Below are positions 5,272-37,423 of a DNA stretch of 64,000 nt, one piece after another. Every line of letters begins with the position of its first letter. The first letter of the stretch is position 1. Where the stretch lies: contig JAESII010000005.1 of the NCBI GenBank assembly GCA_016756725.1, positions 78,996 through 142,995 of the forward strand, in the 5' to 3' direction. The notes below the pieces were generated by a model. It saw only the letters and a list, made by a program, of their open reading frames with translations. It was not told the DNA's origin and made no database searches. The position numbers were made by a program, and so were the translations under genes. The stretch is from Synergistaceae bacterium (GTDB lineage: Bacteria; Synergistota; Synergistia; Synergistales; Aminithiophilaceae).

Positions 5272-6390
5272 TCAGCTCAGGAAAGCCAGCAGCAGTCCCC
5301 CGGCCAAAACGGAGCCGATCTGACCCGATACGTTGGCTCCGACGGCGTGCATGAGCAGGAAGTTGCTGGCGTCGACCTGCTGACCCAGGCGCTGGACGAC
5401 GCGGCTCGACATGGGGAAGGCGCTGATGCCGGCGGCGCCGATCATGGGGTTGATCCGTTGATTCTCGCTGAGGAAGAGGTTGAGGACCTTCGCCGAAAGG
5501 ACGCCGCCGGCCGTGTCGAGGATGAAGGCCACCAGCCCCATGGAGATGATGAGGAGCGTTTCGGGGCGGATGAAACGGTCGCCGGTCATGACGGCGGAGA
5601 TGGAAAAGCCCAGAAGGATGGTGACGATGTTGGCCAGCTCGTTCTGGGCCGCCCGGGAGAGCCGGTCCGTACAGCCGCTGACGCGAAGGAGGTTGCCGAA
5701 CATGAGAAAGCCCAGGAGGGCCACCGAGGCGGGGGCGATGAGGCCGGCCACGACGGTGACGGCGATGGGAAAAGCGATGAGGCGCTTCCGGGAGATCTCG
5801 CGGTGGGCGTAGACCATCTTCATCGACCGCTCCTTGGCCGTCGTCATGAGGCGGATGACGGGCGGCTGGATGAGGGGGACCAGGGCCATGTAGGTGTAGG
5901 CCGCCACGGAGATGGGACCCAGCAGATGAGGGGCGAAGCGGTTGGAGACGTAGATCGACGTGGGGCCGTCGGCGGCGCCGATGATGCCGATCGAGGCCGA
6001 CTCGTGAAGGTCGAAGCCCAGCAGGAGGGCCAGCCCCATGGTGAGGAAGATCCCGGCCTGGGCGGTGAGGCCGAAAAGAAACATGCGCGGGTTGGCCAAA
6101 AGGGGCGTGAAGTCGCACATGGCGCCGACGGCGATGAAGATCAGCAGGGGAAAGAGCTCCGTTTCGATGCCGACGCGAAAGAGCATGGAGAGGGCCCCCT
6201 CGGTGAGGCCCTGGGTGAGGGCCGACGAGAGGGGCAGATTGACGAGAAGGGTGCCGAAGCCCATGGGCAGGAGCAGATTGGGCTCGAAATCCTTGGCGAT
6301 GGCCAGGTACATGAGGGCCAGGCCGACGCCGGTCATGACGACCTGCTGCCAGGTCAGGGCGATGAGGGGTGCGGCAAGGGATGAGAGCAT
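5272..6390 (-). CDS. oadB: Na+-translocating carboxybiotin decarboxylase beta subunit (OadB/GcdB/MmdB family)
   Basis: Motifs FEPNLLLPMGFG, SIGIIGAADGPTSIY, AAYTYMALVPLIQPP, NPMIGAAGISAFPMS, HAVGANVSGQIGS. Confidence 0.9.
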   Translation of the reverse strand: MLSSLAAPLIALTWQQVVMTGVGLALMYLAIAKDFEPNLLLPMGFGTLLVNLPLSSALTQGLTEGALSMLFRVGIETELFPLLIFIAVGAMCDFTPLLANPRMFLFGLTAQAGIFLTMGLALLLGFDLHESASIGIIGAADGPTSIYVSNRFAPHLLGPISVAAYTYMALVPLIQPPVIRLMTTAKERSMKMVYAHREISRKRLIAFPIAVTVVAGLIAPASVALLGFLMFGNLLRVSGCTDRLSRAAQNELANIVTILLGFSISAVMTGDRFIRPETLLIISMGLVAFILDTAGGVLSAKVLNLFLSENQRINPMIGAAGISAFPMSSRVVQRLGQQVDASNFLLMHAVGANVSGQIGSVLAGGLLLAFLS

Positions 6391-6599
6391 TTCGTCCGGG
6401 AGCCTCCTGTTCGACTGATGTCTTCAGTGATCTCGTTCCATTTCGCTCCTGATCGGACCAAAAGTCAAGGGTCTCACCGCCGTGGGCGCCGAGAGGCCGT
6501 CGCGGTGTCCCGGAGGAGAGGAAAGCCCCCGAAGACCCGGTCGGGGCCTTTGTTGTTCCTATTATGGAGTATTTCTCCGCAGGTTTACTAAGAGGCATA

Positions 6600-6628
6600 T
6601 TGTATGACTTCCGGTTCAGGAGTACGAT
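6600..6628 (+). promoter_or_regulatory. Sigma70-type promoter of the RiPP operon
   Basis: TTGTAT-17 bp-TACGAT about 80 bp upstream of the precursor ATG; RBS GGGAGG near 6692. Confidence 0.6.
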
Positions 6629-6706
6629 GAAAAATGTCCTCCGGCAGGATCCCGCCGTAACCGTCCGTTCCGCAGGATTCAGAAAGAAGATGGGAGGGGT
6701 CTCCCC

Positions 6707-6997
6707 ATGTCCGTCGAGAGCGCCCAGGATTTTCTGGACAAGGTCAAAAGCGATGACGCGTTCCGCCAGGCCCTTGAGCAGGCCGCCAGTGATGAAGCCC
6801 GCAAGAAGCTCGTCGCCGAGTCCGGATTCGATTTCACCAAGGAAGAGCTGAAGGAAGCCGCCGGCGTTACCGGCGGTCCTCAGAAGATCGACGAGAAGGA
6901 TCTTGAAGCCGTGGCCGGCGGCGGCGCAGCCGCCTGGGTCAGCGCCACGGGATCGGCCGCCGCCGGAGCCATCGGCGCCGCCGCCGCCGCCATCTAG
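6707..6997 (+). CDS. Nif11-like leader RiPP precursor (72-aa leader, 24-aa core)
   Basis: MSVESAQDFLDKVKSD..FR..L....GFDFTKEELK...DLEAVAGG matches Nif11-type leaders with a double-Gly cleavage site; core GAAAWVSATGSAAAGAIGAAAAAI at 6923-6994; first gene of the operon. Confidence 0.92.
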   Translation: MSVESAQDFLDKVKSDDAFRQALEQAASDEARKKLVAESGFDFTKEELKEAAGVTGGPQKIDEKDLEAVAGGGAAAWVSATGSAAAGAIGAAAAAI

Positions 6998-7087
6998 GTT
7001 TCCGCTCCGAAACAGCTGCCCTGCCGGGGGGCTTCTCGTGTTCACGATTCCGATGACATCCCGAAGGACCCTAAAGCGAGGTATCTC

Positions 7088-8338
7088 ATGGACACCCTTA
7101 CCGTTCCTGTCCTTTTCCGCGGCCAGAGTCACCGCTCCGCCAAGGTCTGCCTGGCCGGCGCGAGGCGGTCCCGGTCTCCCGAGGAGACATACGGAGCCGT
7201 TCGCCCTCTCATGGAGACCATCGGAGCCACCCGTGTCGCCGACATCACCGGCGTCGATCGGATCGGCATTCCCGTCGCGGCCGTCGTTCGCCCCCTCGCT
7301 CCCATTCAGGTCTACTCCTGGGGTAAGGGGACGACGCTCCTTCAGGCCAAGATCTCGGCCATGATGGAGGCCCTCGAACGGCACGGCGGCGAAAGAGCCG
7401 ACCCACCCTCGGTCCGCCTGCCCTATGACGCCCTTGAGGGGCCCAGGATCGCCCTGGAGGACCTGCCCCTCAAGAAGGACCATCTCTTCTCACCCCGTCT
7501 TCCGGAGCGCTGGACGGCAGGCTGGGACCTGATGACGGGCGAGGAGGTCTACGCTCCCCTCCAGCTCGTGCGCCTCTCCTTCCGCCGCGATCTGCCCGGC
7601 GAGACCGAGTCCTTCCAATGCACCTCCAACGGCCTCTCGGCGGGCAACAGCTTCGTCGAGGCCCTCTGTTCGGGGCTCTACGAATGCATCGAACGTGACG
7701 CCGTGACCTGCTGGGAGCTTCATAACCGCTCCCGGGGGCTGACCCTGCCGGGGCGGGTTGTCGACGCCGACGGCATCGACAACCCCGATCTGGCCGACCT
7801 CATCGCCCGCTGCCGCCGGGCCGACGTGGAGGTCCTTTTCCTGGACTGCACGGCCGACACGGCCGTCCCCACCTATGTCTGTTACCTCCAGGACCGGATT
7901 CATCCCCACTGGGGGCTCTATCACGGCAGGGGCACCCATCTCAACCCCCATATCGCCCTGAGTCGGGCCCTCACCGAGGCGGCCCAGGGACGGGCGGCCT
8001 ACCTCCTCGGCGGCCATGACGGCGCCTCCCTGGAGACCCAGGGAACGGTGGCCTTCGGGACGGGTGTCTCCCTGACCCTGAGGGCACAAGCCCTCGAGAA
8101 GGCACCCGCTCCCGGCGCGGACGAGGAATGTGACACCTTCGAGGAGGACGTCCACCTCATCCTGAACAGGCTGGCCCGGGTGGGCATCGGTCGGGCCCTG
8201 GTCTGGGACCTGACGGACCCGGACCTTGCCGTTCCCGTCATCCGCCTTGTCGTGCCCGGCCTCGAGGGATGGCGGATGCACCACTATGCCCCGGGCCGAC
8301 GGGGCCGCGCCTGCGCTGAAGGGGGGTGGAAACCGTGA
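7088..8338 (+). CDS. ycaO: YcaO-family enzyme (TfuA-associated, thioamide-forming type)
   Basis: GKG...AKISAMMEALER; TSNGLSAGN..EA..SGLYECIERDA ATP-binding motif; RALTEAAQ; C-terminal VVPGLE; adjacent to TfuA. Confidence 0.92.
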   Translation: MDTLTVPVLFRGQSHRSAKVCLAGARRSRSPEETYGAVRPLMETIGATRVADITGVDRIGIPVAAVVRPLAPIQVYSWGKGTTLLQAKISAMMEALERHGGERADPPSVRLPYDALEGPRIALEDLPLKKDHLFSPRLPERWTAGWDLMTGEEVYAPLQLVRLSFRRDLPGETESFQCTSNGLSAGNSFVEALCSGLYECIERDAVTCWELHNRSRGLTLPGRVVDADGIDNPDLADLIARCRRADVEVLFLDCTADTAVPTYVCYLQDRIHPHWGLYHGRGTHLNPHIALSRALTEAAQGRAAYLLGGHDGASLETQGTVAFGTGVSLTLRAQALEKAPAPGADEECDTFEEDVHLILNRLARVGIGRALVWDLTDPDLAVPVIRLVVPGLEGWRMHHYAPGRRGRACAEGGWKP

Positions 8339-9702
8339 CGGTCGCCGTCTTTCTCGGGCCCTCCCTGCCCCTGGAGAAGGCCCGGGAGCTTCTTGATGCC
8401 CGCTATCTCCCGCCTGCCCGTCACGGCGACGTGCTCCGCCTCGTCCGGGAGGGGGCCGTCGAGGCCATCGTCCTCATCGACGGAGCCGAGTTCGGCACCG
8501 GCCCCCTGGTCTGGCACAAGGAGATCCTGGCCGCCCTCGACAGGGGGATCGCCGTCTTCGGCGCCGCCGGGTCCGGGGCGGTCCGCGCCGCCGAGCTGGC
8601 CCGATGGGGCATGAGGGGGTTCGGCGAGGTTTACCGCCTCTACAGCGAGGAGGTGCTCGACGGCGACGATGCCGTGGCCTCTCCGTCGCTCTTTCAAAAC
8701 GGACGGTGGCGCCGTCTGGCCGAACCTTTCGTCAATGTCCGGGCCACCGTCGAGAAGGCCCGACGGGAGGGCCTTCTCGACGAGAACGAAGAGGAGCTCC
8801 TCCTTGCGTCGGCTGGAGCCCTCTTCTACCGGGACCGCACCGTCGAGGCGATCCTGGATCGGGCCGTCGCCTCCGGCGCCATGGCCGGAGAGAGGGCCCG
8901 GACGGTCGAAGGGCTGCTCCGCGACGGTTATGTCGACGTCCAGGCCCGCGACGCCGAAGCGCTCCTGGGCCATCTGGCCCGCCAGGGTCTGGGCGAAAGG
9001 CCCGAGGGGCCTCCCTCGACGGAATGGAAGGAATCTCACGTTTTCCGCCGCCTCGTCGAGGAGGAGCGCCAGGAATCGGTCGGTTCCGTTACGCTGAGGA
9101 CAGGCGAAATCGCCGCCTGGGGGGCCCTGGCCCGGCCCGAGGGTTTCGAGGCGGCCCGGCGCGGGCTGAACCGCTTTCTCGGCCTCGAGCTGGCCCGTCA
9201 GAGAGATCTTCGCGTCACCGACGACGAGATTGACCTGGAGGCGACCCGCTTCAGGCGGAGAAAGGGCCTCGCCGACGAGGCCGCCTTCCGCCGGTGGCTC
9301 GGGGCGAACCACCTCGACGACGAGGGCTACCGACGCCTCATGGAGGACGAGGCGACGCTGAGCCGCCTCCGTCACTGGCTCTTCGTGACGGAGCGCTTCG
9401 GCACGCCCGTGAGGGCCCTCCTCGACGAGATGCGCCTCGAGGGGACCTACGAGGCCACGGCGGCCGAAGCGGCCCGGGCCTACGACCTCTTTCGGACCCT
9501 CTGCGGCGATCTCCGCGAGGAGGCGGCCGATCTGGGAAGCCGCGAGGACTTCTTCGCCGCCTATGTCCAGGCCCATCTCCTTCCCCGGATGGACCGCAGC
9601 TTCCTGGCCTGGTGCGAGGAGATGGGCATCGACAGGGGCCGCGCCCTTTTGCACGCCCTCGTCCGCGAGGGGCTCCGCCGCTTTTGCGACGGTCTGGGCT
9701 AA
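8335..9702 (+). CDS. tfuA: TfuA-like protein with long C-terminal extension
   Basis: VFLGPSL, PPARHGD, LIDG, VWHKEIL, RAAEL..WGMRGFGEVY; GTGA overlap with ycaO stop (alternative start 8326). Confidence 0.88.
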   Translation: MTVAVFLGPSLPLEKARELLDARYLPPARHGDVLRLVREGAVEAIVLIDGAEFGTGPLVWHKEILAALDRGIAVFGAAGSGAVRAAELARWGMRGFGEVYRLYSEEVLDGDDAVASPSLFQNGRWRRLAEPFVNVRATVEKARREGLLDENEEELLLASAGALFYRDRTVEAILDRAVASGAMAGERARTVEGLLRDGYVDVQARDAEALLGHLARQGLGERPEGPPSTEWKESHVFRRLVEEERQESVGSVTLRTGEIAAWGALARPEGFEAARRGLNRFLGLELARQRDLRVTDDEIDLEATRFRRRKGLADEAAFRRWLGANHLDDEGYRRLMEDEATLSRLRHWLFVTERFGTPVRALLDEMRLEGTYEATAAEAARAYDLFRTLCGDLREEAADLGSREDFFAAYVQAHLLPRMDRSFLAWCEEMGIDRGRALLHALVREGLRRFCDGLG

Positions 9703-9713
9703 GAGGGCTGACC

Positions 9714-11186
9714 GTGCCTTCGCGGCCTGAGGTCGTCCGTCTTGTCGGCACCAACCGGGCCCTGACGGCTCAGGTCTTCGAGGAGAACTTTCGTTTCGCC
9801 CTCGGCGGTTCGCTGTCCCTTCGCACCGCCTCGGTCCCGATGGACCCCAAGGAAAATCCGGCCTTTTTCGACGCCGGTGACTTCTTCGCTCCCAACTACG
9901 AGATCCAGCCTCTCGTTCCCTGGCTTCTTGCCCGCCGCGAGGCCCTCGGGAAGGCCCAGCGCCTTCTTTTCGTCGCCCACGCCCCGGGAGGCATGGCCTG
10001 GGTCTGGCGCCTCCTGGCGCCTCTGCTGAGGCCCGGGGACCGCATCGTCGCCCCCAGTCCGCATGCCGCCTCGGTCATCGCCTGGCTCGAGCCGTCGCTG
10101 GAGCCCTTCGTCCGCGTCATCGGCCACCCCATCCCCGGCCCGACCGGGGATGACCTTTCCGGTGAACCCGCCTTCCTCTACCTGGGGCGGATCAGGCCGG
10201 AAAAGTGCCTTCACCAGCTCATCGACGGCTACGCCCTCTTCAGGAGCCGCCGACCCGGTCCGCCTTTGATCATCGCCGGCCCCCTTCACGATGACGACGA
10301 CGGCCGTCCCCTCTCCTACGTGATGGCCCTCAGGCGCCGGGCCGCCCGCCTCGGCCTGGAGAGCTCGGTTCTCTTTCCCGGTCCCCTGAGGGGAAGAATG
10401 AAGGAGGCGGCCCTGGCCGGGGCCCTGGGGCTCTGTAATCTCTCTCTCTCCCTGGAGGAGTCCTTCGGGAAGGCTCCCGCCGAGGGCCTCGTCCGGGGCC
10501 TGCCCGTCCTGGCCACGACGTGGAGCGCCTTTCCGGAGATGCTCCGGTCCCGGGGCGTCTTCGTCCCCTGCCGGAAAGGAGCGGGGAGCCGGACCGTCGA
10601 TGCCGGCGAGATCGCATCGGGTCTGGAGGCCCTCCTGGATCGGGGCCGTCTCGACCCGCTTCGTGATGGGGCCAACCCCTACGCTCCGGCTGCCGTCGGC
10701 GGCGCCTACGAAAAGCTCCTGACCGAGGCCCTTGAGGAGAGCAGCCTAAGGGCCCCTTCAGGCCGTCTCGGGGCCCTTGACAGGGTTGCTCCCCTCTGTG
10801 GCCTGTCCTGGGAGGAGCTCTTCGGCTTTCACCGCGACGAATGTTCGCGCAGGCTGAAGCGGATGGCCGGTAAAGAGGCGGCCGCCTACGGGCGGGCCGA
10901 GAGGATCCAGGGCATTCTGGCCCTCTCCCTTCAGGAGGATCTGACGGCCCTTTTCGCCCACGATGGCGTCGTCTTCTCGGGACAGAACCTCTCCCTGCCC
11001 CTCGACGGGACGGAAAGTCCCCTCCTTCGTGGAGCGGCACGGGGTGAAGCCAGTCTGGCCTCCCGTCTTGCCTCCGTGGCGGCTCTCGCCGAAGAGGGGG
11101 AGGTCGCCGAGGGGCGCCGTCTCCTGGAGGCCCTGCCCGAGGGGGGGGTGTCCTTCGCGCCTTTGCCGCCGTCCGTCTGGCCCTGA
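9714..11186 (+). CDS. GT-B (GT4-like) glycosyltransferase, 5' part; frameshifted at G8 tract 11141-11148
   Basis: YLGRIRPEK and ESFGKAPAEGL..GLPVLAT...FPEML GT4 motifs; GTG start 9714 inferred. Confidence 0.78.
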   Translation: MPSRPEVVRLVGTNRALTAQVFEENFRFALGGSLSLRTASVPMDPKENPAFFDAGDFFAPNYEIQPLVPWLLARREALGKAQRLLFVAHAPGGMAWVWRLLAPLLRPGDRIVAPSPHAASVIAWLEPSLEPFVRVIGHPIPGPTGDDLSGEPAFLYLGRIRPEKCLHQLIDGYALFRSRRPGPPLIIAGPLHDDDDGRPLSYVMALRRRAARLGLESSVLFPGPLRGRMKEAALAGALGLCNLSLSLEESFGKAPAEGLVRGLPVLATTWSAFPEMLRSRGVFVPCRKGAGSRTVDAGEIASGLEALLDRGRLDPLRDGANPYAPAAVGGAYEKLLTEALEESSLRAPSGRLGALDRVAPLCGLSWEELFGFHRDECSRRLKRMAGKEAAAYGRAERIQGILALSLQEDLTALFAHDGVVFSGQNLSLPLDGTESPLLRGAARGEASLASRLASVAALAEEGEVAEGRRLLEALPEGGVSFAPLPPSVWP

Positions 11187-11524
11187 AGGAGGGCGACGCA
11201 GGCGGAGCCCTCCGGGCCTGGGCGGCCAGGCCCGGAGTCTGGTCCGAGAAAGAGGAGGGAGGGGCCTGGCTCCGCATGGGCGCTGAAATCGCCCGCTTCG
11301 GCGGATCTCCCGCGGCCCGGGCCGTTCTTCCTGTCCTGAAGGACTGGTGCCGTCGTTTCCCCGACGGGCCCGAGACGGGGGCCGTGGCCCTGGGCTGGTG
11401 TCTGGCGGCCCTGGCCGGCGACGTCGCCGAGGAAGGCCGGGAGGCCCTGAACCTGGCCCGAGCCCTCCTGCCCGAGGGAGAGCTGCTCCGCCGTCTCGAT
11501 TCCGTCCTTTTGGGGGTGTGCTGA
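11147..11524 (+). pseudogene. C-terminal helical (TPR-like) continuation of the glycosyltransferase in the shifted frame
   Basis: Open frame from 11147 (GVLRAFAAVRLALKEGDAGGALRAW...) joins ORF 11276-11524; adding one G to the G8 tract gives a single 603-aa ORF 9714-11524. Confidence 0.65.
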
Positions 11525-13140: not shown

Positions 13141-13166
13141 ACGGATCTTTCGAAGGAGGTCTTCAG

Positions 13167-16864: not shown

Positions 16865-16931
16865 CGGCGTCCCCTTCCGGGGAAGGCCGTCGTCGGAGGG
16901 CCGTGAAGGCGAACCGAGGGAGGTGAAGGAG

Positions 16932-18224
16932 ATGGCTCATGAGACGAAGCTCTTTCGCAAGAAGGCTCTGGACCGGCTCTCGTCGCCGGAGCAGATGGAC
17001 CGGACGATGTCCTTCGTCGGTCCCCGGGCCTGGATCCTGCTGCTGGCCTCCCTGGTCCTGATGGGAGGGCTCCTCTTCTGGGGCTTTTTCGGCTCCCTGT
17101 CGACGAAGGTCACCGGGGCCGGAATCCTGCTCGGCATGGGGGAGGTCGTCGAAGTGAGTCCCCGCGAGGGGGGCCGCGTCCTGAGCCTGGCCTCGGGGCT
17201 GAACCGGTATGTTCAGAAGGGGACCATCCTGGCCGAGATCGATCAGATCGCGATGGAGCAGCAGCTCGAAGAGGCCGAGCGGGAACTGGAGGATCTGAGA
17301 AACCAGCTCCTCCGGGCCGAACAGAGCGAGGCCTCGAGAAAGCGCTACGAATCGGACTACACCGAAAGCCAGCGCCGGACCCTCCAGACCTCCATCCTTT
17401 CCGCCAGGGACCGGGCCCGAAGACTCGAGGAGATGGAGAAGAAATATCGCGGCCTCTACGAGCGCCAGCTCGTGACGGAGGGGGAGTACCTCGACGTCCG
17501 TGACCGCTACGACCAGGCTGTCCAGGACATCCTCCGCTACGAGGAAAACCTGGCCAAGCTGCCCGTCGCCACCGTCGAGTCCCGCACCCAGTGGGAGAGG
17601 GAGCAGCGCGACCTGGCCTACCAGATCGTCCAGATGGAGGAGCGCGTCCGCCAGTACGCGACGAAGCTGGAGGAAAACAAAAGCCTCGTCAGCCCCGTTT
17701 CGGGGTTCGTCATCGGCGTCTACAAGAACACGGGCGAGATGGTCGCCGCCGGCGAGACGGTTTACGTCATCGAGGAGGCCGGCCCGGCCCAGAGCGGGAG
17801 CGAGGCGGAGCTCTTCGCCCAGGTCTACGTGCCCACGGCCCAGGGCAAGAAGGTCCGTCCCGAGATGGAAGCCCTCGTGACGCCGACGGTCGTGAAGCGC
17901 GAAGAGTACGGCTCGATCCGGGGCCGCGTCCTTTTCGTCTCCGACGCTCCCGTCTCGCGGAAGACGATGCTCCGTTTCCTGGGCAACGAGGACCTGGTCG
18001 ACCAGCTCTCCCGTGACGGATCGCCCATCGGCGTCTACGTGGAGCTCCTCGATTCGGACGAGACCGAAAGCGGCTACGTCTGGACCTCGGGGAAGGGTCC
18101 GTCGATCACGATCGACCGCAATTCGGTCTGTTCTGTCGAGATCGTGACGCGCCGCCAGAAGCCGATCACCCTCGTTCTGCCCTTCCTCCGGAAATGCCTT
18201 CTCGGCGTCGGAGAGGGACAATGA
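16932..18224 (+). CDS. NHLP/Nif11 bacteriocin secretion membrane-fusion protein (HlyD family)
   Basis: LFRKKALDRLSSPEQMD N-terminus, coiled coil, 'GKKVRP.M...V.P..VKREEYGSI.G.V', 'SGYVWTSGKGP'. Confidence 0.92.
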   Translation: MAHETKLFRKKALDRLSSPEQMDRTMSFVGPRAWILLLASLVLMGGLLFWGFFGSLSTKVTGAGILLGMGEVVEVSPREGGRVLSLASGLNRYVQKGTILAEIDQIAMEQQLEEAERELEDLRNQLLRAEQSEASRKRYESDYTESQRRTLQTSILSARDRARRLEEMEKKYRGLYERQLVTEGEYLDVRDRYDQAVQDILRYEENLAKLPVATVESRTQWEREQRDLAYQIVQMEERVRQYATKLEENKSLVSPVSGFVIGVYKNTGEMVAAGETVYVIEEAGPAQSGSEAELFAQVYVPTAQGKKVRPEMEALVTPTVVKREEYGSIRGRVLFVSDAPVSRKTMLRFLGNEDLVDQLSRDGSPIGVYVELLDSDETESGYVWTSGKGPSITIDRNSVCSVEIVTRRQKPITLVLPFLRKCLLGVGEGQ

Positions 18225-20428
18225 GAACTTTCAGGAAATCTCCGGCTCCCCTTCGGTGGTCCTCAGGCCGGGGGCGGGTGAAGACGCCGACCCTGCTTCA
18301 GATGGAGGCAACCGAGTGCGGTGCCGCCGCCCTGGGGATCGTCCTCGGTTACTACCGGCGCTTCGTCCCCCTCGAGAAGCTCCGCGAGGAGTGTGGCATC
18401 ACCCGCGACGGCAGCAAGGCGAACAACGTCCTTCGGGCCGCACGGCGCCACGGGATGGAGGCCGAAGGCTTCCGCGTGGAGACCGAGGATCTGCCTCAGC
18501 TTCCTTTGCCCCTGATCCTCTTCTGGAAGTTCAACCATTTCCTCGTCCTCGAGGGAATGAAGGGGTCCAAGGTCTTTCTCAACGATCCCGCCGCCGGGCC
18601 CGTCGTCGTCGACCGTGAGAGCTTCGACCGCGACTTCACCGGCGTGGTCCTTTCCCTCGTTCCAGGCCCCGACTTCGTGGCCCAGGGGAGCCCCAAAAGG
18701 CCCTGGCAGGCCCTGGGCCAGCGTCTCAAGTCGGTCTGGACGATGCTCCTTTTCGCCGTCGTCGCCGGCCTGGGGCTGGTCATTCCCGGCCTGCTGGTGC
18801 CGGGGCTCTATCAGGTCTTTCTCGACGAGATCCTCGTCTCTTTCCAGCCGGGCTACTTCAAGCCGCTGCTGCTCTTTCTCCTCGCCCTGGGGCTGACCCA
18901 GGGGGTGCTGACGCTGCTTCAGCAGCATGCCCTGCTCCGGCAGGAGATGGCCCTGGCCGTGGGCCAGTCGCTGCGCTTTTTTCTCCACGTCCTGCGTCTG
19001 CCCTATGCCTTCTTCGTCCAGCGCTTCAGCGGCGAGGTGGGCAACCGGGTGGCCCTGAACGACCAGATCGCCACGACCCTCTCCCGCCAGCTGGCGACGA
19101 CGGTGCTGAGCTGCTCGACGCTGGTCTTCTTCTTCGTCGTCATGGTCGGCTATTCGCCGACGATCGCCCTCATCGGCGTCGGCGCCGCCCTGGCCAACGT
19201 GGCTCTCCTCCTGTCCGTCAACCGGCGCCGGGCCGACCTGAACGAGCGGATTCTCGCCGACCGGGGCAAGTTCACGGGCATCGCCATGAGCGGCCTTCAG
19301 CTCATCGAGACCATCAAGGCCACGGGGGGCGAGGACGATCAGTTCGCCCGCATCGCCGGGCACCTGACCAAGTCGAAGCGTGGCCAGATCGAGATGGGCT
19401 TTTTCAATACCCTCATCGAGCCCGTCCCCTCTCTTCTGGCCTCCCTCGTCGCTGCCACCCTCCTCTGTCTCGGCGGCCTCCAGGTCATGGAGGGCGTCCT
19501 CACCCTGGGCATGCTTCTGGCCCTGCAGACGCTGATGACGAATTTCCTCAATCCCGTGGGCCAGCTCGTCGACCTGAGCGCCACCTTCCAGACCGTCCAG
19601 GGGACGCTGAACCGTCTCGAAGACGTGCTGCGCTATCCCGCCGACTCGTCCTGGCAGCCCCGGGAGGAGGACGGCCGCGAGAGGGACCCGAAGGCCGCCG
19701 TTCCCTTCCGCCTCACCGGTCGGCTCGAGCTGCGGGGCCTCACCTTCGGCTATTCCCGCCTCGACGCGCCGCTGATCGAGGACTTCTCCCTCACCTTGAG
19801 GCCGGGAGCGAGGATCGCCCTCGTCGGCGGTTCGGGATCGGGCAAGTCGACGATCGCCAAACTCGTCTGCGGCCTCTTCGAACCCTGGTCGGGGGAGGTT
19901 CGCTTCGACGGCATTCCCCTGAGGGAGATCGACCGGGAGAGACTGGCCCGGTCCTTCTCCTTCGTCGATCAGGACATCGTCCTCTACGAGGGAACGGTCC
20001 GGGAGAACCTCACCCTCTGGCGCGAGGGGATTCCCGAGGCGTGGCTCGTCGAGGCCTGCCGCGACGCGGCCATCCACGACGAGATCGCCGCCCGGCCCAA
20101 GGGATACGACTCCCTCGTCGAGGAGAACGGCCGCAACTTCAGCGGCGGCCAGAGACAGCGCCTCGAGATCGCCCGGGCCCTCGTCATGGGGCCTTCGCTG
20201 CTCGTCATGGACGAGGCGACGAGCGCCCTCGATACCCAGACGGAACGTCTCGTCGACGCCGGACTGAGACGCCGCGGCTGTTCCTGCCTCATCGTGGCCC
20301 ACCGGCTCTCGACGATCCGCGACAGCGACGAAATCATCGTCCTCGACCACGGCAAGGTCGTCGAACGGGGCGACCACGAATCGCTCATGGCTCTCTGCGG
20401 CCGCTACCGGTCGCTCATCGAGAACTGA
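18221..20428 (+). CDS. NHLP-family ABC exporter with C39 peptidase domain (leader removal)
   Basis: TPTLLQMEATECGAAAL (catalytic Cys), WKFNHFLV (His), GGSGSGKST, FSGGQRQR. Confidence 0.93.
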   Translation: MRTFRKSPAPLRWSSGRGRVKTPTLLQMEATECGAAALGIVLGYYRRFVPLEKLREECGITRDGSKANNVLRAARRHGMEAEGFRVETEDLPQLPLPLILFWKFNHFLVLEGMKGSKVFLNDPAAGPVVVDRESFDRDFTGVVLSLVPGPDFVAQGSPKRPWQALGQRLKSVWTMLLFAVVAGLGLVIPGLLVPGLYQVFLDEILVSFQPGYFKPLLLFLLALGLTQGVLTLLQQHALLRQEMALAVGQSLRFFLHVLRLPYAFFVQRFSGEVGNRVALNDQIATTLSRQLATTVLSCSTLVFFFVVMVGYSPTIALIGVGAALANVALLLSVNRRRADLNERILADRGKFTGIAMSGLQLIETIKATGGEDDQFARIAGHLTKSKRGQIEMGFFNTLIEPVPSLLASLVAATLLCLGGLQVMEGVLTLGMLLALQTLMTNFLNPVGQLVDLSATFQTVQGTLNRLEDVLRYPADSSWQPREEDGRERDPKAAVPFRLTGRLELRGLTFGYSRLDAPLIEDFSLTLRPGARIALVGGSGSGKSTIAKLVCGLFEPWSGEVRFDGIPLREIDRERLARSFSFVDQDIVLYEGTVRENLTLWREGIPEAWLVEACRDAAIHDEIAARPKGYDSLVEENGRNFSGGQRQRLEIARALVMGPSLLVMDEATSALDTQTERLVDAGLRRRGCSCLIVAHRLSTIRDSDEIIVLDHGKVVERGDHESLMALCGRYRSLIEN

Positions 20429-20443
20429 GGGGAGGGGAGGATC

Positions 20444-23350
20444 ATGGACAGCCGGCTCGAATCGCTCACGTCCCGCGGCACGGAATGGACCCTTCTCTCC
20501 CGCCTGGGGGAGCCTCTGGGAGGAAGACAGCCCTTTCTCGTCGTCGTCGAGGGCATCGTCGACGTCCGGGGCGTCGTCCTCTCCGACGACAGGCCCTGGG
20601 GACCGCGGGAACCGCTCCTTTCTCTTGCCGCCGGGGACGTCCTCTGGGACGTCGACGGAATGATCGCGGGCTACGGCCTGGAGCTGACGGCCCGGGACAG
20701 GGCCCGCCTCGTGGCGGTCCCCTGGGCGGTCCTCGAAAAGTGGGCCTCCGATCCCGAGCGGCGCCAGACCCTTCTTGCCCTGGCCGAGAACTTCCTGGGC
20801 CGTTTCGCCGCGACGCTGAGCCGCAAGGCCACTCCCGGTTCTGCGCCGGTGAAGGCTCCCGAAGAGGGAGAACACTCCTTTGAGGCCGGCGAGCTGCTGG
20901 CTTCTCCCGAGGGGGCCCCCTGGGCCTCTCCGGTCGGGGGCGAGCTCCTTCTTCTGGGCACCGAATCGCCCGGTGAGGGCCCCTTTTTCGCCGGGGCCGG
21001 CCTCTGGCTTCGGACCCTCTCGGAAGGGGCCGTCCAGTGGCTTCCGGCCTCGGAAATCGCAAGACAGATCCCTCTCGGGGAGCTGCTCCGGCGAAGCCTG
21101 GCTCTCTTCTGGCGTCTCGCCTCCGTCGAGGCCCGCCTCGATCTGGCCGATCAGTGGAACGTCTCCCGTACCATGGCCGCCCTCGGCCGGGAGCGTTTCA
21201 AGGGAGCCCTGGCCAATCTCGGGACCATCCTCTCCCGGGGCGAGGAACGCAAGGCGGCCCCGGCCGAGACGCCCTGGCTCAAGATCGGCGCCCGCCTCGG
21301 CGAAGCGATGGGCTTCAGCCTGCCCCGGGATCTGCAGAATCCCCAGGAGATCACCTCAGCCGAGGACCTGGGCCGTGCCCTGAGCCTGAGGGTCCGCAAG
21401 GTGGCCCTCGAAAAGGGCTGGTGGCGCAAGGAGGGTCTGCCCCTCATCGCCTTTGCCGGCGACGACGAGCCCCTGGCCCTCATTCCCCGAGGACGGCGCT
21501 ATCACCTCTACAGGCCCGGCGACGGCTCGGAGGCTCCCGTCACAGCCGTCGAGGCCGCGGCGATCGCCGAAGAGGCCTTCGCCGTCTACCGCCCCCTGCC
21601 GGCGGGCAGCCTGAAGAAAGGGGACCTCTTCTCCTTCGGTCTTTTCCGTTCCGGCGGCGAACTCCTCTTGGCCTTCGTCGTCGCCGTCGTCATGGGCGGC
21701 CTGGGCCTTCTCGTGCCCGTCATCAACGGCAAGGTCTTCCAGGACCTCATCCCCGCCGCGGAGCGGGGCGAGATCGTCGATACCTTCCTGATCCTCGTCG
21801 CCCTCGCTCTGACGACGGCGCTGCTCCGGCTCTTTCAGCAGCTCTCCCTCTTCCGCGTCGAGAGCCGCATGGACCACGATCTGGAGACGGCCCTCTGGGA
21901 CCGGCTGCTGCGGCTGAAGGCGACCTTCTTCCGTCGCTACTCGGCCGGCGACCTGGCCAACCGCGCCTTCGGTCTCTACTCGGTCCATCAGTACATGAGC
22001 CAGTCGGCCCGCACGGTGGTCACCAGCTTCGTCTTTTCTCTGCTCTATCTGGCCCAGATGTTCTATTACGACTGGAAGGTCGCCCTCGCCGCCGCGGCCT
22101 GTCTGGCCTGTCTCGGCGCGGCCATGGCCCTGGCCGGCCTGGTGCAGATCCGTTACCAGCGGAAGATGGTGGCCCTCCAGAACCGGCTGAGCGGCATGGT
22201 CCTCCAGATCCTGTCGGGACTGAACAAGATCCGCGTCGCCGCCGCCGAAGAGCCCGCCTTCGCCCGGTGGGCCAACCTCTTCGGCTCCCAGCGGCTCTGC
22301 AACTACCGGTCCGGCCGGGCCGTGGCCATCCTCAGCGGCTTCGCCTCGGCCTTTCCCGCCCTCTGTGCCGTCATCATCTTTCTTGTCATCATGTACGGCC
22401 GCGTCGGCTATCCCGACGAGATGGGCCAGGCCTACGACCTGGGTCGCTTCGTCAGCTTCTGGTCCGCCTACGGCGCCATGCAGGGCGCCTTCCTGAGTCT
22501 CGTCTCGACGGTGATGACCCTCTTCGCCGTCCTCCCCCTCTACGAGGCGCTCTCCCCCGTTCTCGACGAGGAGCCCGAGGTGGGCGACCTCAAAGCCGAT
22601 CCCGGCCTTCTCCGGGGCAAGATCGATCTCTCCTCCGTCACCTTCCGCTACGACAGGGAGGCGCCCATCCTCTTCCAGAACCTCTCCCTGTCGGTGAAGC
22701 CCGGCGAGTTCCTGGCCCTTGTCGGTCCCTCGGGATCGGGCAAGTCGACGATCATCCGCCTCCTTTTGGGCTTCGAGTTTCCCGAAAGGGGCGACGTCTT
22801 CTACGACGACAAGCCGCTGAAGGACATGGACCTCCGCAAGGTCCGCTCCCAGATCGGCGTCGTCCTTCAGCAGGGGGGGGTCATCGCCGGCGACCTTTTC
22901 TCCAACATCGTCTGTTCCCGGCCCCTCTCGATCGACCAGGCCTGGGAGGCGGCCCGCATCGCCGGCCTCGACGAGGATATCAAGGCCATGCCCATGGGCA
23001 TGCACACGATGATCACCGAAGGGGCCAACACCCTCTCGGGCGGTCAGCGGCAGCGGCTGGCCATCGCCAGGGCTGTCGTGGCCAGGCCGTCGATCCTGCT
23101 TTTCGACGAGGCCACATCGGCCCTGGACAACCGCACTCAGGACGAAGTCTCCCGCAGTCTGGAACAGCTCCAGGCGACGCGGATCGTCGTGGCCCACCGC
23201 CTCTCGACGATCCGCAACGCCGACCGCATCGCCGTCATCGCCGGCGGCGCCGTGGCCGAAGAGGGGACCTTCGACGAGCTGATGGAACGGCGGGGGCTCT
23301 TCTACGAGCTCAGTCTCCGCCAGATGACGGGAGAGGAGGCACGATCGTGA
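20444..23350 (+). CDS. NHLP-family second ABC transporter (inactive peptidase-like domain, degenerate N-terminal regulatory domains)
   Basis: 'RVRKVALEKGWWR...PL', WDRLLRL..FFRRYSAGDL, GPSGSGKST, LSGGQRQR. Confidence 0.9.
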   Translation: MDSRLESLTSRGTEWTLLSRLGEPLGGRQPFLVVVEGIVDVRGVVLSDDRPWGPREPLLSLAAGDVLWDVDGMIAGYGLELTARDRARLVAVPWAVLEKWASDPERRQTLLALAENFLGRFAATLSRKATPGSAPVKAPEEGEHSFEAGELLASPEGAPWASPVGGELLLLGTESPGEGPFFAGAGLWLRTLSEGAVQWLPASEIARQIPLGELLRRSLALFWRLASVEARLDLADQWNVSRTMAALGRERFKGALANLGTILSRGEERKAAPAETPWLKIGARLGEAMGFSLPRDLQNPQEITSAEDLGRALSLRVRKVALEKGWWRKEGLPLIAFAGDDEPLALIPRGRRYHLYRPGDGSEAPVTAVEAAAIAEEAFAVYRPLPAGSLKKGDLFSFGLFRSGGELLLAFVVAVVMGGLGLLVPVINGKVFQDLIPAAERGEIVDTFLILVALALTTALLRLFQQLSLFRVESRMDHDLETALWDRLLRLKATFFRRYSAGDLANRAFGLYSVHQYMSQSARTVVTSFVFSLLYLAQMFYYDWKVALAAAACLACLGAAMALAGLVQIRYQRKMVALQNRLSGMVLQILSGLNKIRVAAAEEPAFARWANLFGSQRLCNYRSGRAVAILSGFASAFPALCAVIIFLVIMYGRVGYPDEMGQAYDLGRFVSFWSAYGAMQGAFLSLVSTVMTLFAVLPLYEALSPVLDEEPEVGDLKADPGLLRGKIDLSSVTFRYDREAPILFQNLSLSVKPGEFLALVGPSGSGKSTIIRLLLGFEFPERGDVFYDDKPLKDMDLRKVRSQIGVVLQQGGVIAGDLFSNIVCSRPLSIDQAWEAARIAGLDEDIKAMPMGMHTMITEGANTLSGGQRQRLAIARAVVARPSILLFDEATSALDNRTQDEVSRSLEQLQATRIVVAHRLSTIRNADRIAVIAGGAVAEEGTFDELMERRGLFYELSLRQMTGEEARS

Positions 23351-24651
23351 TCGCGAAAACAGGAAGATTCCTCGTCGTCGCCCTGATCGGTCTCCTCCTA
23401 GGGGCCCTTCCGGCCCTGGCCGGACCGGATCGGTTTCCCCTCGACCTGGAGTCCTATCTCCTCAAGGTGCTCAAGGCCAACCCCTCCATCAGGGCGGACC
23501 GGCTCAAGGCCCAGGCCTTGAGGGAGGACGCCCGCCTGACTGTGGCCAACCAGAGGACCAACGTCTCCGTCGCCGGTTCCGTCGAGCGTTGGACCTACTA
23601 CCCCGGGCGGCGCAGCGACCAGACCCTGTCGCTGGTGCTGCGCCAGAACGTCGACGTCTCCGGCCTCTACGGGGCGACGGAGCGGAAGGCCCTCTACGCC
23701 TACCGGATCGGCCTCTACGATTATGCCGCCACGATCAACGCCGTCCTCGCCGCTGCCGAGGAGGCCTACTGGAAGGCGGGCTATGCCCGCAGGAAGGTGA
23801 TCCTCCTTGAAGAGATCGTCGAGGAGCGCCTCAAGGCGCTCGATCTGCTGGAACTCCAGCTGAGACAGAAGCTCGTCACCGCCATCGACAGGAACAAGGG
23901 ACGGGTCAATCTCGAGGAGGGACAGCTGGCCCTGGAGGAGGCCCGTTTGGCCGAGCTGCTGGCCCTGGAGGACATGGCCCGCTACGTCGGCCTGTCAGGA
24001 TTTTGCCCTGCCGAAGTTCCCGAAGACGCCTTCGGCCTTCCCGGAGATCTGGCCACCGTTCTCGAGACCAACCCCCAGCTCGCCTCGGCCAGAACGGCCG
24101 TCGACTACGCCCGGGCCGGCCTGGCCGTCGCCGCCAGGGGCAAGGCCCCGACGGTGCAGCTCCAGGGGACCTACCGGCTCTGGACGGACTACACCTCCCC
24201 CTATTCGGATCAGGAGGAGGGGGAGTGGGAGCTCCTTCTCTATGTCGACTTTCCCCTCGTCGACGGAGGCAAGGTCGCCGCCGACGTGAGAAAGAACACA
24301 AACCTCGTCGACGAGGCCATTCAGCGCCTCAGGGACGGCGAAGACGAGGTGACCCTTCTCTACCGTCAGGCCAGCCAGGAGTGGCATTCGGCCATGCGCA
24401 AGGCCGAGCTCCTGAAACGCCAGCAGCGCTATGCCGGAGAAAACCGGGAAAGCACCTGGATTCTCTTCCAGGAGCGCCTGAAGGACACGCTGGCCCTCAT
24501 GGACGCCTTCGAGAAGGACCAGCAGGCCCAGACCCAGCTCGTCGAGGCCCTCCTCAACATCCGTCTTGCCGAGGTGAAGGCCCGCAAGGCCCTGGGGGCC
24601 TACCTCGACGACGTGCCCCGCGACGTGCTGGAAGGGGGCGGCCTGCCGTGA
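23347..24651 (+). CDS. TolC-family outer-membrane efflux protein
   Basis: Signal peptide, two helical OEP-like repeats (NP.+.A, 'FPLVDGG'); GTGA overlap with the ABC gene. Confidence 0.8.
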   Translation: MIAKTGRFLVVALIGLLLGALPALAGPDRFPLDLESYLLKVLKANPSIRADRLKAQALREDARLTVANQRTNVSVAGSVERWTYYPGRRSDQTLSLVLRQNVDVSGLYGATERKALYAYRIGLYDYAATINAVLAAAEEAYWKAGYARRKVILLEEIVEERLKALDLLELQLRQKLVTAIDRNKGRVNLEEGQLALEEARLAELLALEDMARYVGLSGFCPAEVPEDAFGLPGDLATVLETNPQLASARTAVDYARAGLAVAARGKAPTVQLQGTYRLWTDYTSPYSDQEEGEWELLLYVDFPLVDGGKVAADVRKNTNLVDEAIQRLRDGEDEVTLLYRQASQEWHSAMRKAELLKRQQRYAGENRESTWILFQERLKDTLALMDAFEKDQQAQTQLVEALLNIRLAEVKARKALGAYLDDVPRDVLEGGGLP

Positions 24652-25751
24652 CGGATCTCCTCACCGCCGAGAGCCGGCCCTGCCTCAAGGGGAGCGCCAT
24701 GGCCGTCGGCCTGCCCGGCGACGGCCTTCTCTTCCCCTTCCTGCCCCGCCCGGAGGCTCAGCTTCTGGCCGTCGCGCCCTGGCAGAAGGCCTTCTTTCAG
24801 CTCCTCGACGGCGAGCGAACCCTGAAGGAAATTGCTGCCCTGCTGCCCCTCTTCGGCCATGAGGTGAGCCTTGCCGAGGTACTTGCCTTCGTCCGCGACC
24901 TCGACAGCCGCCTCCTCCTCGAGGAGGGGAGGGACGGCGCCAAGGAGGACCGCTACAGTCGTCAGCGTCTCTTCTTCGGCGCCTGGCGCAGGCGGGGCCG
25001 TTCCTTCGCCCAGGAGGCCCAGAAGCGGCTCGCCTCCAGCCGCGTCGTCCTCTTCGGCGTCGGCGGGGGCGGCTGTCATGTCCTCCAGAGTCTGGCTTCC
25101 TTCGGCCTGGGCGGCATCACCGTCGTCGACGGTGACGTTGTGACGCCGTCGAATCTGAACCGCCAGTGCCTCTACCGCCCCGATGACGTGGGCCGCTCCA
25201 AGATCGATGTCCTCCGCCGGGAACTGCCCCGGATCAACGGGGACGTCGCCTTTTCCTTCGTCGACCGGGTCATGAGGGGGGCTGAGGACTTCGCATCCCT
25301 CATCGCCGACGCCGACCTGGCCATCCTCACCGCCGATTCGCCGCGCCAGTCCATCTTCGGCTGGTTCGACGACGCCCTCTTCCGCGTCTTTCGCCCCGGC
25401 CTCTTCACCGCCGGCGTCAGCCTCGGGGGGCTCTCCCTGGGCCCTCTCGTCGTCCCCGGCGAGACGGCCTGCTACCGTTGCTCCCTGCCGCCGTGGACGC
25501 CCGATTTCGACCGGCCCGAGGTGAAAGTCCTCAACGGCGCCTACCGCCACGGCGTCATCGCCCCCCATCTGGCCGTCCTGGGGGGGCTCATGGCCCTTGA
25601 GACGGTCCGCTTCCTCACTGGTTTCGAGGAACCCCTCACCCGAGGAGCCCGTCTCGGCCTCGATCTCTCCCGGTGGGAGGCGGTGCGGACGCCCCTTTCG
25701 GCCCGGCCCGGGTGCCGGTGCCACCGAGCCGAAAGGGGGGATGGGCCCTGA
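24648..25751 (+). CDS. ThiF/E1-family adenylyltransferase with N-terminal winged-helix (RRE-like) domain
   Basis: LLDGERTL.EI winged-helix region; RYSRQ, GVGGGG, DGDVV..SNLNRQ, GPLVVPGETACYRC. Confidence 0.85.
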   Translation: MTDLLTAESRPCLKGSAMAVGLPGDGLLFPFLPRPEAQLLAVAPWQKAFFQLLDGERTLKEIAALLPLFGHEVSLAEVLAFVRDLDSRLLLEEGRDGAKEDRYSRQRLFFGAWRRRGRSFAQEAQKRLASSRVVLFGVGGGGCHVLQSLASFGLGGITVVDGDVVTPSNLNRQCLYRPDDVGRSKIDVLRRELPRINGDVAFSFVDRVMRGAEDFASLIADADLAILTADSPRQSIFGWFDDALFRVFRPGLFTAGVSLGGLSLGPLVVPGETACYRCSLPPWTPDFDRPEVKVLNGAYRHGVIAPHLAVLGGLMALETVRFLTGFEEPLTRGARLGLDLSRWEAVRTPLSARPGCRCHRAERGDGP

Positions 25752-26548
25752 AGCTGACCCTTCACGGAGGAACCGTCGCCTGCGACGTCATCGGCGACGG
25801 GCCTCCCCTGCTCTTTCTCAACGGCCTGGGCATGCCCCGCTCCGGCTGGAGCCGCGTCGTGGCGTCCCTCAAAAGCCCCTGCCGGGCCATCCTCGTCGAC
25901 CCCCCCGGCTCCGGCGAGAGCGACGATCCCCGGGGCCCCCTCTCCATCGCCTCTCTGGCCGACGACGCATCCCGGCTTCTCGAGGCTCTGGCCGTCGGCG
26001 AGGTCTTCCTCGCGGGCACCTCCATGGGCGGCTTCGTGGCCCTTGAGATGGCCCGGCGACACCGACACAGGACAAGAGGGATGGTGCTCTTCTGCACTCC
26101 CTCCCGTCTCGACGGGTGGGGCCGCTTTCAGATCGAGACCTGGCTCAAGCTGCGTCGTGAGGGAGCCTCTCCGGAATCGCTCATCCGCCTCCAGCTGGCT
26201 GCGACGCTCTCGTCCTCTCTCTTCGACCGTCTGGCGACGGTGGAGGCCATGGTCGCCTTCTTCGTCGACCATCAGGAGGAACTGGGCCAGAGCGACGGCG
26301 CCTTCGTCGCCCAGGCCCAGGCCTGTCTCGACTTCGACGGAGGGCCCTTCCTGGGCGACATCGACTGTCCGGCCCTCGTCGTCGCCGGCGGCGCGGACCG
26401 CATGGTGCCGCCCGCTCAGGCCGAGGCCCTCCACCGCGGCCTCAGGAGAAGCCGTTTCCTTCTCCTGCCCGACGGGGGACATGCCCTGGCCGTCACGGAA
26501 AGCGCCGCCATGGCGGCGGCGATCGATTCCCTCCTGGCGGCCTCCTGA
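25748..26548 (+). CDS. Alpha/beta hydrolase
   Basis: GTSMGG nucleophile elbow, DRMVP acid, GGH His; start inferred as CTG overlapping the ThiF stop (ORF track start 25673). Confidence 0.85.
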   Translation: MKLTLHGGTVACDVIGDGPPLLFLNGLGMPRSGWSRVVASLKSPCRAILVDPPGSGESDDPRGPLSIASLADDASRLLEALAVGEVFLAGTSMGGFVALEMARRHRHRTRGMVLFCTPSRLDGWGRFQIETWLKLRREGASPESLIRLQLAATLSSSLFDRLATVEAMVAFFVDHQEELGQSDGAFVAQAQACLDFDGGPFLGDIDCPALVVAGGADRMVPPAQAEALHRGLRRSRFLLLPDGGHALAVTESAAMAAAIDSLLAAS

Positions 26549-26563
26549 ACCCTGCTTCAAGGC

Positions 26564-26600
26564 AAAAGAGGAGGCCGGCCCCTCAGGGGCCGGCCTCCTC
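26564..26600. terminator. Rho-independent terminator between the convergent RiPP operon and fhs
   Basis: Perfect 15-bp IR gaggaggccggcccc-tca-ggggccggcctcctc preceded by AAAA (U-tail on the minus strand). Confidence 0.85.
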
Positions 26601-31394: not shown

Positions 31395-31504
31395 AGAAAG
31401 GACGAAACGGGGTGTCGTGCCGGCCCGAGGCACGGCTGCCTTCGGGCAGGGCGGGCCCGCCCTGCCCCTGTTTTCCCAGAACGCTGCTCCCCAGGAGGAT
31501 GACG

Positions 31505-37397: not shown

Positions 37398-37423
37398 GCC
37401 CTATAATGGCCTCGGAGGACGCC

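Follow-up and report, generated by a model that had tools for sequence, protein, structure and literature searches.

Gene clusters for ribosomally synthesized peptides with post-translational modifications (RiPPs) in which a Nif11-type precursor accompanies a TfuA–YcaO pair were listed in 2021 by Malit et al., among them a Desulforegula cluster with NHLP transporters (PMC8120280). Other clusters in that list carry ThiS/ThiF, an epimerase or B12-binding radical S-adenosylmethionine (rSAM) enzymes, and the legend of Fig. 4 names a GT4, a MoeB and a RiPP recognition element (RRE). One set, Tha-1 from Desulforegula conservatrix Mb1Pa, was expressed in E. coli by Ayikpoe et al. in 2022 and yielded one thioamide by mass spectrometry (PMC9576775); it consists of two Nif11-type precursors with tryptophan at core position 5 (Trp5), YcaO, TfuA, a glycosyltransferase, an rSAM methyltransferase, ThiS and ThiF. 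The locus described here lies in a 64 000-nucleotide stretch (the window) of contig JAESII010000005.1 from a Synergistaceae bacterium, in which 13 genes, all on the + strand and running from a Nif11 precursor to an alpha/beta hydrolase, occupy ∼20 kb between positions 6707 and 26548 (Table 1). The region is probably an enlarged RiPP operon of the Tha-1 type, the product of which would be an exported hydrophobic 24-residue peptide; its backbone would carry one thioamide or more, and C-methylation, glycosylation and a C-terminus either capped or closed into a ring are predicted. A first-pass annotation had presented it as an apparently uncharacterised class, a description that the two publications above overtake; judged from its sequence, the cluster is a new, well conserved and probably expressed variant of the barely studied Tha-1 type of thioamitide. 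Three separately conserved rSAM enzymes, a ThiF bearing an RRE and the hydrolase are new relative to Tha-1.

Gene content and described systems

Matches above the curated cut-offs were obtained for PF07862 and TIGR03798 (Nif11), PF02624 (YcaO), PF07812 (TfuA), PF00534 (GT1/GT4), PF04055 (Radical_SAM, three times), TIGR03794, TIGR03796 and TIGR03797 (the NHLP export triad), OEP/TolC, ThiF and Abhydrolase_1. The gene inventory given earlier (precursor, TfuA–YcaO, three B12-rSAM enzymes, glycosyltransferase, ThiF, hydrolase and exporter) was thereby confirmed, as was its arrangement as a co-directional, mostly coupled operon: the genes share one strand and most junctions overlap or nearly touch. 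Seven of the 12 junctions can be read as overlaps of 4–13 nt (one via a CTG start; the ThiF–hydrolase junction counts as an overlap only if the hydrolase starts at CTG), two have gaps of 11–15 nt and two have gaps of 58 and 90 nt, and the junction between rSAM enzymes 1 and 2 has an alternative reading as a 26-nt gap.

Table 1. Features of the cluster and its flanks (window numbering).
Feature	Position	Strand	Match or remark
Probable promoter, TTGTAT-N17-TACGAT	6600..6628	+	Hexamers and 17-nt spacing recur in same-genus genome G002 (locus L014), spacer different
Probable 5' leader, CCT(C/T)CGGC(A/G)G motif and GGAG(G) ribosome site	6635..6706	+	Alignment
Precursor, 96 aa: Nif11 leader (72 aa, double Gly at its end) and core (24 aa) G-A-A-A-W-V-S-A-T...G-A5-I	6707..6997	+	PF07862, TIGR03798
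YcaO, thioamide-forming type, 416 aa	7088..8338	+	PF02624
Long TfuA, 458 aa, TfuA domain and C-terminal extension	8326..9702	+	6xp8, Z 28.7, root-mean-square deviation 2.1
GT4-fold glycosyltransferase with helical C-terminal domain, frameshifted near 11141	9714..11524	+	PF00534; 603 aa in close strains
B12-binding rSAM enzyme 1, 540 aa	11518..13140	+	PF04055; PF02310 just under cut-off
B12-binding rSAM enzyme 2, 624 aa	13167..15041	+	PF04055; solved relatives TokK, CysS
B12-binding rSAM enzyme 3, 608 aa	15038..16864	+	PF04055; PF02310 just under cut-off
NHLP-type HlyD adaptor	16923..18224	+	TIGR03794, 286 bits (cut-off 156)
C39 peptidase–ABC transporter	18221..20428	+	TIGR03796, 990 bits (cut-off 853); Cys, His and Asp motifs present
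Second NHLP ABC subunit	20444..23350	+	TIGR03797, 809 bits (cut-off 709)
TolC-like outer-membrane channel	23347..24651	+	PF02321
ThiF-like adenylyltransferase, 367 aa, N-terminal peptide-binding (RRE-like) domain	24648..25751	+	MccB/PaaA likeness
Alpha/beta hydrolase, ∼266 aa	25748..26548	+	PF00561; start uncertain, CTG 25748 or GTG 25712/25718
15-bp hairpin	26568..26600	.	Between cluster and convergent fhs; z −5.6; U-tract on − strand only (window copy)

Lengths, N-termini and cores of Tha-1 were compared by eye from the table of the paper, and the order of that table was taken as the gene order. Read in this way, both systems have a Nif11 leader with a double Gly, a core that starts with a small residue and carries Trp5-Val6, and a Gly/Ala-rich tail. 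They also have in common the first five gene types and NHLP-type transporters, the Tha-1 proteins being a YcaO of ∼421 residues, a long TfuA of ∼454 residues, a glycosyltransferase of ∼629 residues with the N-terminal motif of the window family and an rSAM enzyme of ∼570 residues with a similar N-terminus. The features of the Tha-1 type, again by eye, are thus found in the window: a Nif11 leader with a Trp5 core and, after the YcaO, a long TfuA, a GT4 enzyme of ∼630 residues and a B12-type rSAM enzyme. Whereas Tha-1 itself has two precursors ending in Cys-Gly-Trp, one rSAM enzyme, ThiS and a short ThiF (∼224 residues) without the N-terminal peptide-binding domain (PMC9576775), the window has one Cys-free precursor ending in Ala5-Ile, three rSAM enzymes, an RRE-ThiF of 367 residues, a hydrolase and no ThiS in the cluster.

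Thioviridamide-type pathways, such as that of thiostreptamide S4 (PMC8153245), have a YcaO, a TfuA and a small hydrophobic core in common with the window; unlike them, the window has no phosphotransferase, HopA1-like protein or flavin decarboxylase among the 14 open reading frames (ORFs) scanned, no C-terminal Cys and so no AviCys ring, and it combines a Nif11 leader with type I export. Polytheonamide- and aeronamide-type proteusins (PoyB, PoyC; PMC11285071) resemble the cluster in a Gly/Ala/Val-rich hydrophobic core and several B12-rSAM enzymes. The cluster differs from them in its Nif11 rather than nitrile-hydratase-like leader, the absence of an epimerase-type rSAM enzyme, a core of 24 residues, the Cx4Cx2C motif and the TfuA–YcaO pair. 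A long structured leader and C39 export are also common to the two. The earlier statement that the locus belongs to neither of these types is supported. The bottromycin cluster likewise has YcaOs and an alpha/beta hydrolase; it differs in having a follower peptide and in lacking TfuA, a Nif11 leader and a glycosyltransferase. Its three class B rSAM enzymes (B12-rSAM C-methyltransferases; PMC11285071) are a further common feature. MccB, PaaA, GrcB and IndF combine, like the window ThiF, an RRE with an adenylation domain carrying ATP motifs, and none of them is described with TfuA–YcaO in the available parts of PMC12596934 and PMC12150305. Compared with these systems the window core does not end in Asn, Glu or Cys, and its ring would be far larger than that of IndF; the C-terminal Asn of microcin C substrates is replaced by Ile throughout. 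No description of the enlarged set or of a Synergistota product was found in the open-access literature (subscription papers and MIBiG lay outside the search), nor was a peptide natural-product cluster for Aminithiophilus.

Conservation, distribution and expression

The precursor is the sole Nif11 match in the window genome, the assembly of which is 83% complete. Among 28 distinct precursors, half of the core does not vary (12 of 24 positions, namely Gly1, Trp5, Ala8, Thr9, Ala16, Gly18, Ala19–23 and Ile24), positions 7 and 11 hold either Ser or Thr without exception, no core contains Cys and all 28 end in Ile; since these precursors are kin, the figures do not constitute a statistical test. 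The grand average of hydropathy of the core is 1.32, and its monoisotopic mass without modification is 1956.006 Da. Within the core, synonymous differences rise to 0.94 per site versus 0.12 for non-synonymous differences, and the non-synonymous difference (pN) is lower in the core than in the leader in six of seven pairs. These sequence comparisons indicate that the core is under purifying selection. Precursors that are more distantly related retain Trp5; their first core residue is Ser or Asn, and this supports cleavage behind the second Gly. A leader–Trp motif gave 48 matches in metagenomes, of which ten were of the window cluster type, nine were related hydrophobic Trp5 precursors and 29, set aside, were other leader peptides or chance matches. 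Five of the nine related precursors lie beside a YcaO gene, four beside an asparagine-synthetase-like gene and one with YcaO, TfuA and the glycosyltransferase (profile E 5e-156).

With the window YcaO as query, 18 of 268 Synergistota genomes gave a match, five of them (the window genome G000 included) at E ≤ 6e-169, and the glycosyltransferase family was confined to the same five genomes (four of 176 near-complete genomes). The carriers within the phylum are Synergistaceae, Aminiphilus and Aminithiophilus ramosus, and the order of the 13 genes is identical in all four other genomes with a close YcaO. In genome G002, of the same genus, the cluster occupies the same site between oadB and fhs; carriers in the other genus have different neighbour genes. 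A sister species in the window genus (G001) has a deletion scar at the site: the region from ∼6500 to 24825 (window numbering) is gone, and the scar (L089:1500–3000, contig C38) holds a 480-codon open frame in which a truncated ThiF is fused to a truncated hydrolase. The cluster is old in the window genus and has sometimes been lost. Recent horizontal arrival is ruled out by codon use, by the site common with G002 and by the G001 scar, and the long residence proposed in the first-pass annotation is upheld by the latter two. The host-like composition noted there is borne out by percentiles of 44–90 for GC content at third codon positions and 51–88 for codon adaptation among 1556 genes, a roughly called reference set. 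A scan of a species-genome collection with an alignment of rSAM enzyme 2 returned three loci, all of them Synergistota known already, so that distant clusters were not reached by it.

In each of two RNA runs, from different studies, a contig confined to the precursor gene was found, starting at 6650–6652, with depths of 301 and 100; the other contigs of these runs in the locus have depths of 3–14, and two DNA runs show no such step at the precursor. RNA contigs cover 25–28 of the 30 bins of the locus. These data are contigs from runs that were found using this region, and DNA carry-over may contribute to them; they give a weak hint of an abundant short precursor transcript rather than a measurement, and the cluster is apparently, and probably, expressed in anaerobic communities.

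Proposed pathway and competing readings

The steps set out here are predictions throughout, built on genes, a conserved gene order, catalytic motifs and core selection that were read directly. The most likely course runs from thioamidation through C-methylation and glycosylation to activation at Ile24, ring closure or capping, cleavage at the double Gly and export. YcaO and TfuA would very probably put sulfur into the peptide backbone, with ThiS, encoded at another place in the genome, as the carrier. The nearest solved relative of the YcaO is the thioamidating YcaO of a methanogen (6pe3, E 8e-51), ahead of MusD, TruD and LynD (E 6e-29 to 6e-24); its ATP motifs are invariant in 12 sequences, and the cyclodehydratase-type model TIGR03604 gives 128 bits versus a cut-off of 219. 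The locus shows two hallmarks of thioamitides in the broad sense, namely adjacent ycaO and tfuA genes with intact motifs and a precursor beside the pair. TfuA uses thiocarboxylated ThiS (cited in PMC8153245); no ThiS-like ORF was found within the cluster, and ThiS/MoaD genes and a separate ThiF are encoded elsewhere in the window genome. The 6xp8 match covers the first 225 residues of TfuA. Its extension (residues ∼275–355) gives four weak but concordant SurA-like helical signals, namely SurA_N_3 in four of 12 members (best E 4e-4), TIGR04500 (E 7e-6), 3rgc (Z 7.2) and SurA 8qpv (E 0.09), a lead according to which the extension may hold the precursor as SurA would.

The three B12-rSAM enzymes would probably C-methylate different residues, for example Val6, Ile17, Ile24, a Thr or an Ala. 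All three carry a B12-type N-terminal domain and the domain order fits C-methyltransferases, with scores under the cut-offs and a motif unlike that of PoyC. Their mutual identity is 34–42%, and each forms a supported clade of its own across two genera, so that three functions have been maintained. A tblastn search of the window genome revealed no further close rSAM enzyme; CobS is encoded in that genome.

The ThiF is the most distinctive enzyme of the cluster, and the first-pass annotation gave it no role. Its best solved relatives are MccB (E 1e-34) and PaaA, ahead of ThiF, and its putative RRE was read from the PaaA alignment (from profile position 5) rather than from a dedicated RRE search. 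The GxGGxG, NLxRQ, Lys and ADxP motifs and the zinc cysteines are conserved in 16 sequences, as expected of a catalytic RRE-ThiF, and the crossover Cys of thiamine ThiF is lacking; by these residues the protein is not of the thiamine type. Its likeness to MccB and PaaA, its peptide-binding domain and its unbroken ATP motifs make it the likely activator of the C-terminal Ile carboxylate, which is the sole carboxylate of the window core. The enzyme would probably bind the leader through its RRE and adenylate Ile24, whereupon a side chain (Ser7, Thr9, Ser/Thr11 or Trp5) would most likely close a ring, or an outside nucleophile would cap the terminus. The C39 domain cleaves during export, which makes the N-terminal amine an unlikely ring partner for a cytosolic ThiF. 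A precedent is IndF, which adenylates a C-terminal Ile and closes it onto Trp (PMC12150305). Related Nif11–YcaO–TfuA clusters with Ala-rich tails carry, in place of ThiF, an asparagine-synthetase-like enzyme of a family for which modification of C-terminal carboxylates has been demonstrated (PMC13060819). This fits a shared need for carboxylate activation, qualified by the Asp or Glu present in many of the sister-cluster cores. The hydrolase, in which Ser92, Asp217 and His245 are invariant (five of five sequences) and the solved relatives of which are esterases and enol-lactonases, is tentatively assigned the transfer or proof-reading of the activated acyl group.

The main rival gives ThiF a lesser part and is held to be unlikely: the protein would only dock the leader, for YcaO or the rSAM enzymes, or supply sulfur, by activating either ThiS made elsewhere or the precursor C-terminus as a transient thiocarboxylate. 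The product would be linear, thioamidated and methylated with a free C-terminus, close to the picture in the first-pass annotation. Docking-only ThiF-like proteins occur in YcaO pathways (PMC12596934, PMC6511847), ThiS/ThiF pairs occur in other Nif11–TfuA–YcaO clusters (PMC8120280, Fig. S20 legend), and the use of thiocarboxylated ThiS by TfuA agrees with a role in sulfur supply. Such an account has to accommodate a thiF gene that lies 16 kb from ycaO and adjoins the hydrolase gene, a carrier (ThiS) that needs no RRE, a genome with a separate ThiF and ThiS, and type-B clusters that run YcaO–TfuA with no ThiF match in the loci examined. Moreover, docking-only versions usually lose the ATP motifs, all of which are conserved in the window ThiF.

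In the preferred reading the glycosyltransferase may attach a sugar, to a hydroxyl or, less probably, to Trp5 or the sulfur of the thioamide. The enzyme had been recognized in the first-pass annotation, which missed the frameshift: the frame stops at 11186, the last 125 residues lie in another frame and the shift falls among eight consecutive G near 11141. The 603-residue protein P0063 of close strains matches both pieces (96 and 98%), and the versions in four related genomes have 615–633 residues. Eight runs were examined, others with small shares being left out, and seven of the eight cover the site; the gene is in-frame in six (X2, X3, X4, X5, X8 and X20, from four other studies). As X1, a possible source of the window DNA, agrees with the window and the six other runs are in-frame, the frameshift is probably real and confined to the window strain. 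The enzyme of that strain is probably truncated, the sugar-binding domains being left and part of the helical tail removed. An 82-residue ORF (11276–11524) was rejected as a gene of its own or an RRE, being the glycosyltransferase tail by its match to P0063.

At E ≤ 1e-30 the family of this enzyme numbers 153 representatives; of the 150 listed, 92 are near full length with 560–750 residues, and the ExFGxxxxE motif is kept by 54 of these 92. No NCBIfam model scored over its cut-off and no activity was found for the family in the open-access literature. The structure model (mean predicted local distance difference test 60) gave no Foldseek match at E < 0.001, and the GlgM and SenB rows were discarded as too weak to be evidence of function. 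The weak likeness to SenB, a selenosugar synthase (TIGR04047 far below its cut-off at E 2e-7; Foldseek E 1e-3 with a poor model), is only a lead that hints at sugar transfer to sulfur. Some family members (P0085–P0181) are fusions of 890–1100 residues, P0146 with an aminoglycoside-phosphotransferase-like domain.

Decay of the cluster in the window lineage, leaving little or no finished product, would explain the frameshift in the window and X1, the loss of most of the cluster in G001 and its presence in only five of 268 genomes of the phylum. It is improbable, the other 12 genes being full length with intact motifs, the glycosyltransferase in-frame in six runs from four studies, the core under purifying selection and the RNA contigs extending over the precursor and nearly all bins. 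The least probable alternative is a linear azoline peptide, with or without thioamides, made by cyclodehydration of Ser/Thr to oxazolines, for which YcaO with an E1-like protein is the standard set-up, TIGR03604 and TIGR03882 give matches and Ser7/Thr9/Ser11 are conserved, but the low TIGR03604 score and the likeness to 6pe3 do not indicate the cyclodehydratase-type YcaO of linear azol(in)e peptides, TfuA overlaps ycaO, the core has no Cys, Tha-1 yielded a thioamide and no dehydrogenase was found among the 14 ORFs scanned.

Several points weigh against the preferred reading itself. The three B12-binding matches score 30.8, 28.7 and 28.6 versus a Pfam cut-off of 32.1, and TIGR03975 scores 130, 111 and 76, far under 282; the rSAM motif is an invariant Cx4Cx2C, unlike the Cx7Cx2C of PoyC, and B12-rSAM enzymes also catalyse other chemistry. 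In one pair of precursors (L059) pN is higher in the core than in the leader. The glycosyltransferase is broken in the window, in agreement with X1, and no hydroxyl position is common to all cores that accompany a window-type glycosyltransferase (window, L049 and Tha-1). In YcaO clusters, ThiF-like proteins often act as docking partners that lack catalytic function (PMC12596934), and the IndF ring has four residues while a Trp5–Ile24 ring would have 20. Tha-1 in E. coli carried no sugar and no methyl group, and its thioamide was unlocated (PMC9576775).

Export by the C39 transporter, which would cut after the double Gly and pass the peptide through HlyD and TolC, is the step held with most confidence, all three models of the NHLP type I triad scoring over cut-off. 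The secreted hydrophobic 24-mer with a Nif11 leader and backbone thioamide(s) that was proposed earlier is supported as a reading; its methylation and O-glycosylation are still predictions, neither having been seen in the Tha-1 test, and the hydroxyls are no better conserved than Trp5. Use of the peptide as a membrane-active antimicrobial is narrowly favoured. A more elaborate reading, considered rather improbable, would define a subclass of Nif11 thioamitides with the Ala-rich tail in a large ring closed by RRE-ThiF, C-methylation by three non-redundant B12 enzymes, a sugar put on Trp5 or the thioamide sulfur by a GT4-plus-helical-repeat family, a C-terminal activator that is swappable across the wider group (ThiF or asparagine-synthetase-like) and, in the long TfuA, a SurA-like chaperone domain that replaces an RRE in holding the hydrophobic precursor.

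Flanking signals, related loci and significance

The sigma70 promoter proposed earlier was not recovered by a consensus scan upstream of the cluster, which returned no sites, TTGTAT-N17-TACGAT included, but both hexamers and their spacing are conserved in G002. A GAGTA..T box is present in seven aligned upstream regions. The CCT(C/T)CGGC(A/G)G motif (6638–6652) lies just 3' of the likely start site; it is conserved across two genera in an otherwise divergent leader and may be a regulator site or a 5' hairpin. An Rfam search of 6380–7100 gave a chance-level match only and the 5' leaders fold no better than shuffled sequences (z −0.5 to 0.4), so no riboswitch is claimed. At the other end the strong terminator of the earlier description is indeed a strong hairpin, but with its U-tract on the − strand it serves fhs. 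Further downstream a flagellin of 1975 residues (31412–37339, + strand) combines normal domains at both termini with a very long central part, and is followed by a BTAD/AAA/TPR regulator of 1030 residues (37406–40498); two − strand genes lie in a low-GC island (45500–47700, GC 0.40–0.48 versus ∼0.65).

A second type of Synergistota cluster was observed at L022, L024, L025, L026, L028, L030 and L031 (genomes G006, G015, G024, G029, G040 and G054), with YcaO, a long TfuA, one to ten Nif11 precursors, the NHLP export triad and TolC. Six of these seven loci have an asparagine-synthetase-like gene without an N-terminal glutaminase start; the cores are varied and hydrophobic with Ala-run ends, a few being Pro-rich instead, and neither Trp5 nor a member of the glycosyltransferase family occurs in the seven loci. 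High-GC metagenome loci (L044, L049, L050, L052, L063, L069, L070, L079 and L080) encode Nif11 precursors with the pattern xxx[E/D/T]W[V/A]...Ala tail, adjacent to genes for YcaO, tandem YcaO-like proteins, TfuA, a full-length asparagine synthetase or a window-type glycosyltransferase.

A single member of the precursor family, Tha-1, has apparently been tested before, with one unlocated thioamide as the end point. In the present cluster seven tailoring enzymes accompany one precursor, itself strongly conserved, and the glycosyltransferase has an intact counterpart that can be named from Aminithiophilus ramosus, a cultured species. It provides a handle on the role of a widespread unnamed glycosyltransferase family, on whether a catalytic ThiF works with TfuA–YcaO and on the purpose of the long-TfuA extension, and is better described as a good lead for natural products than as an entirely new class.

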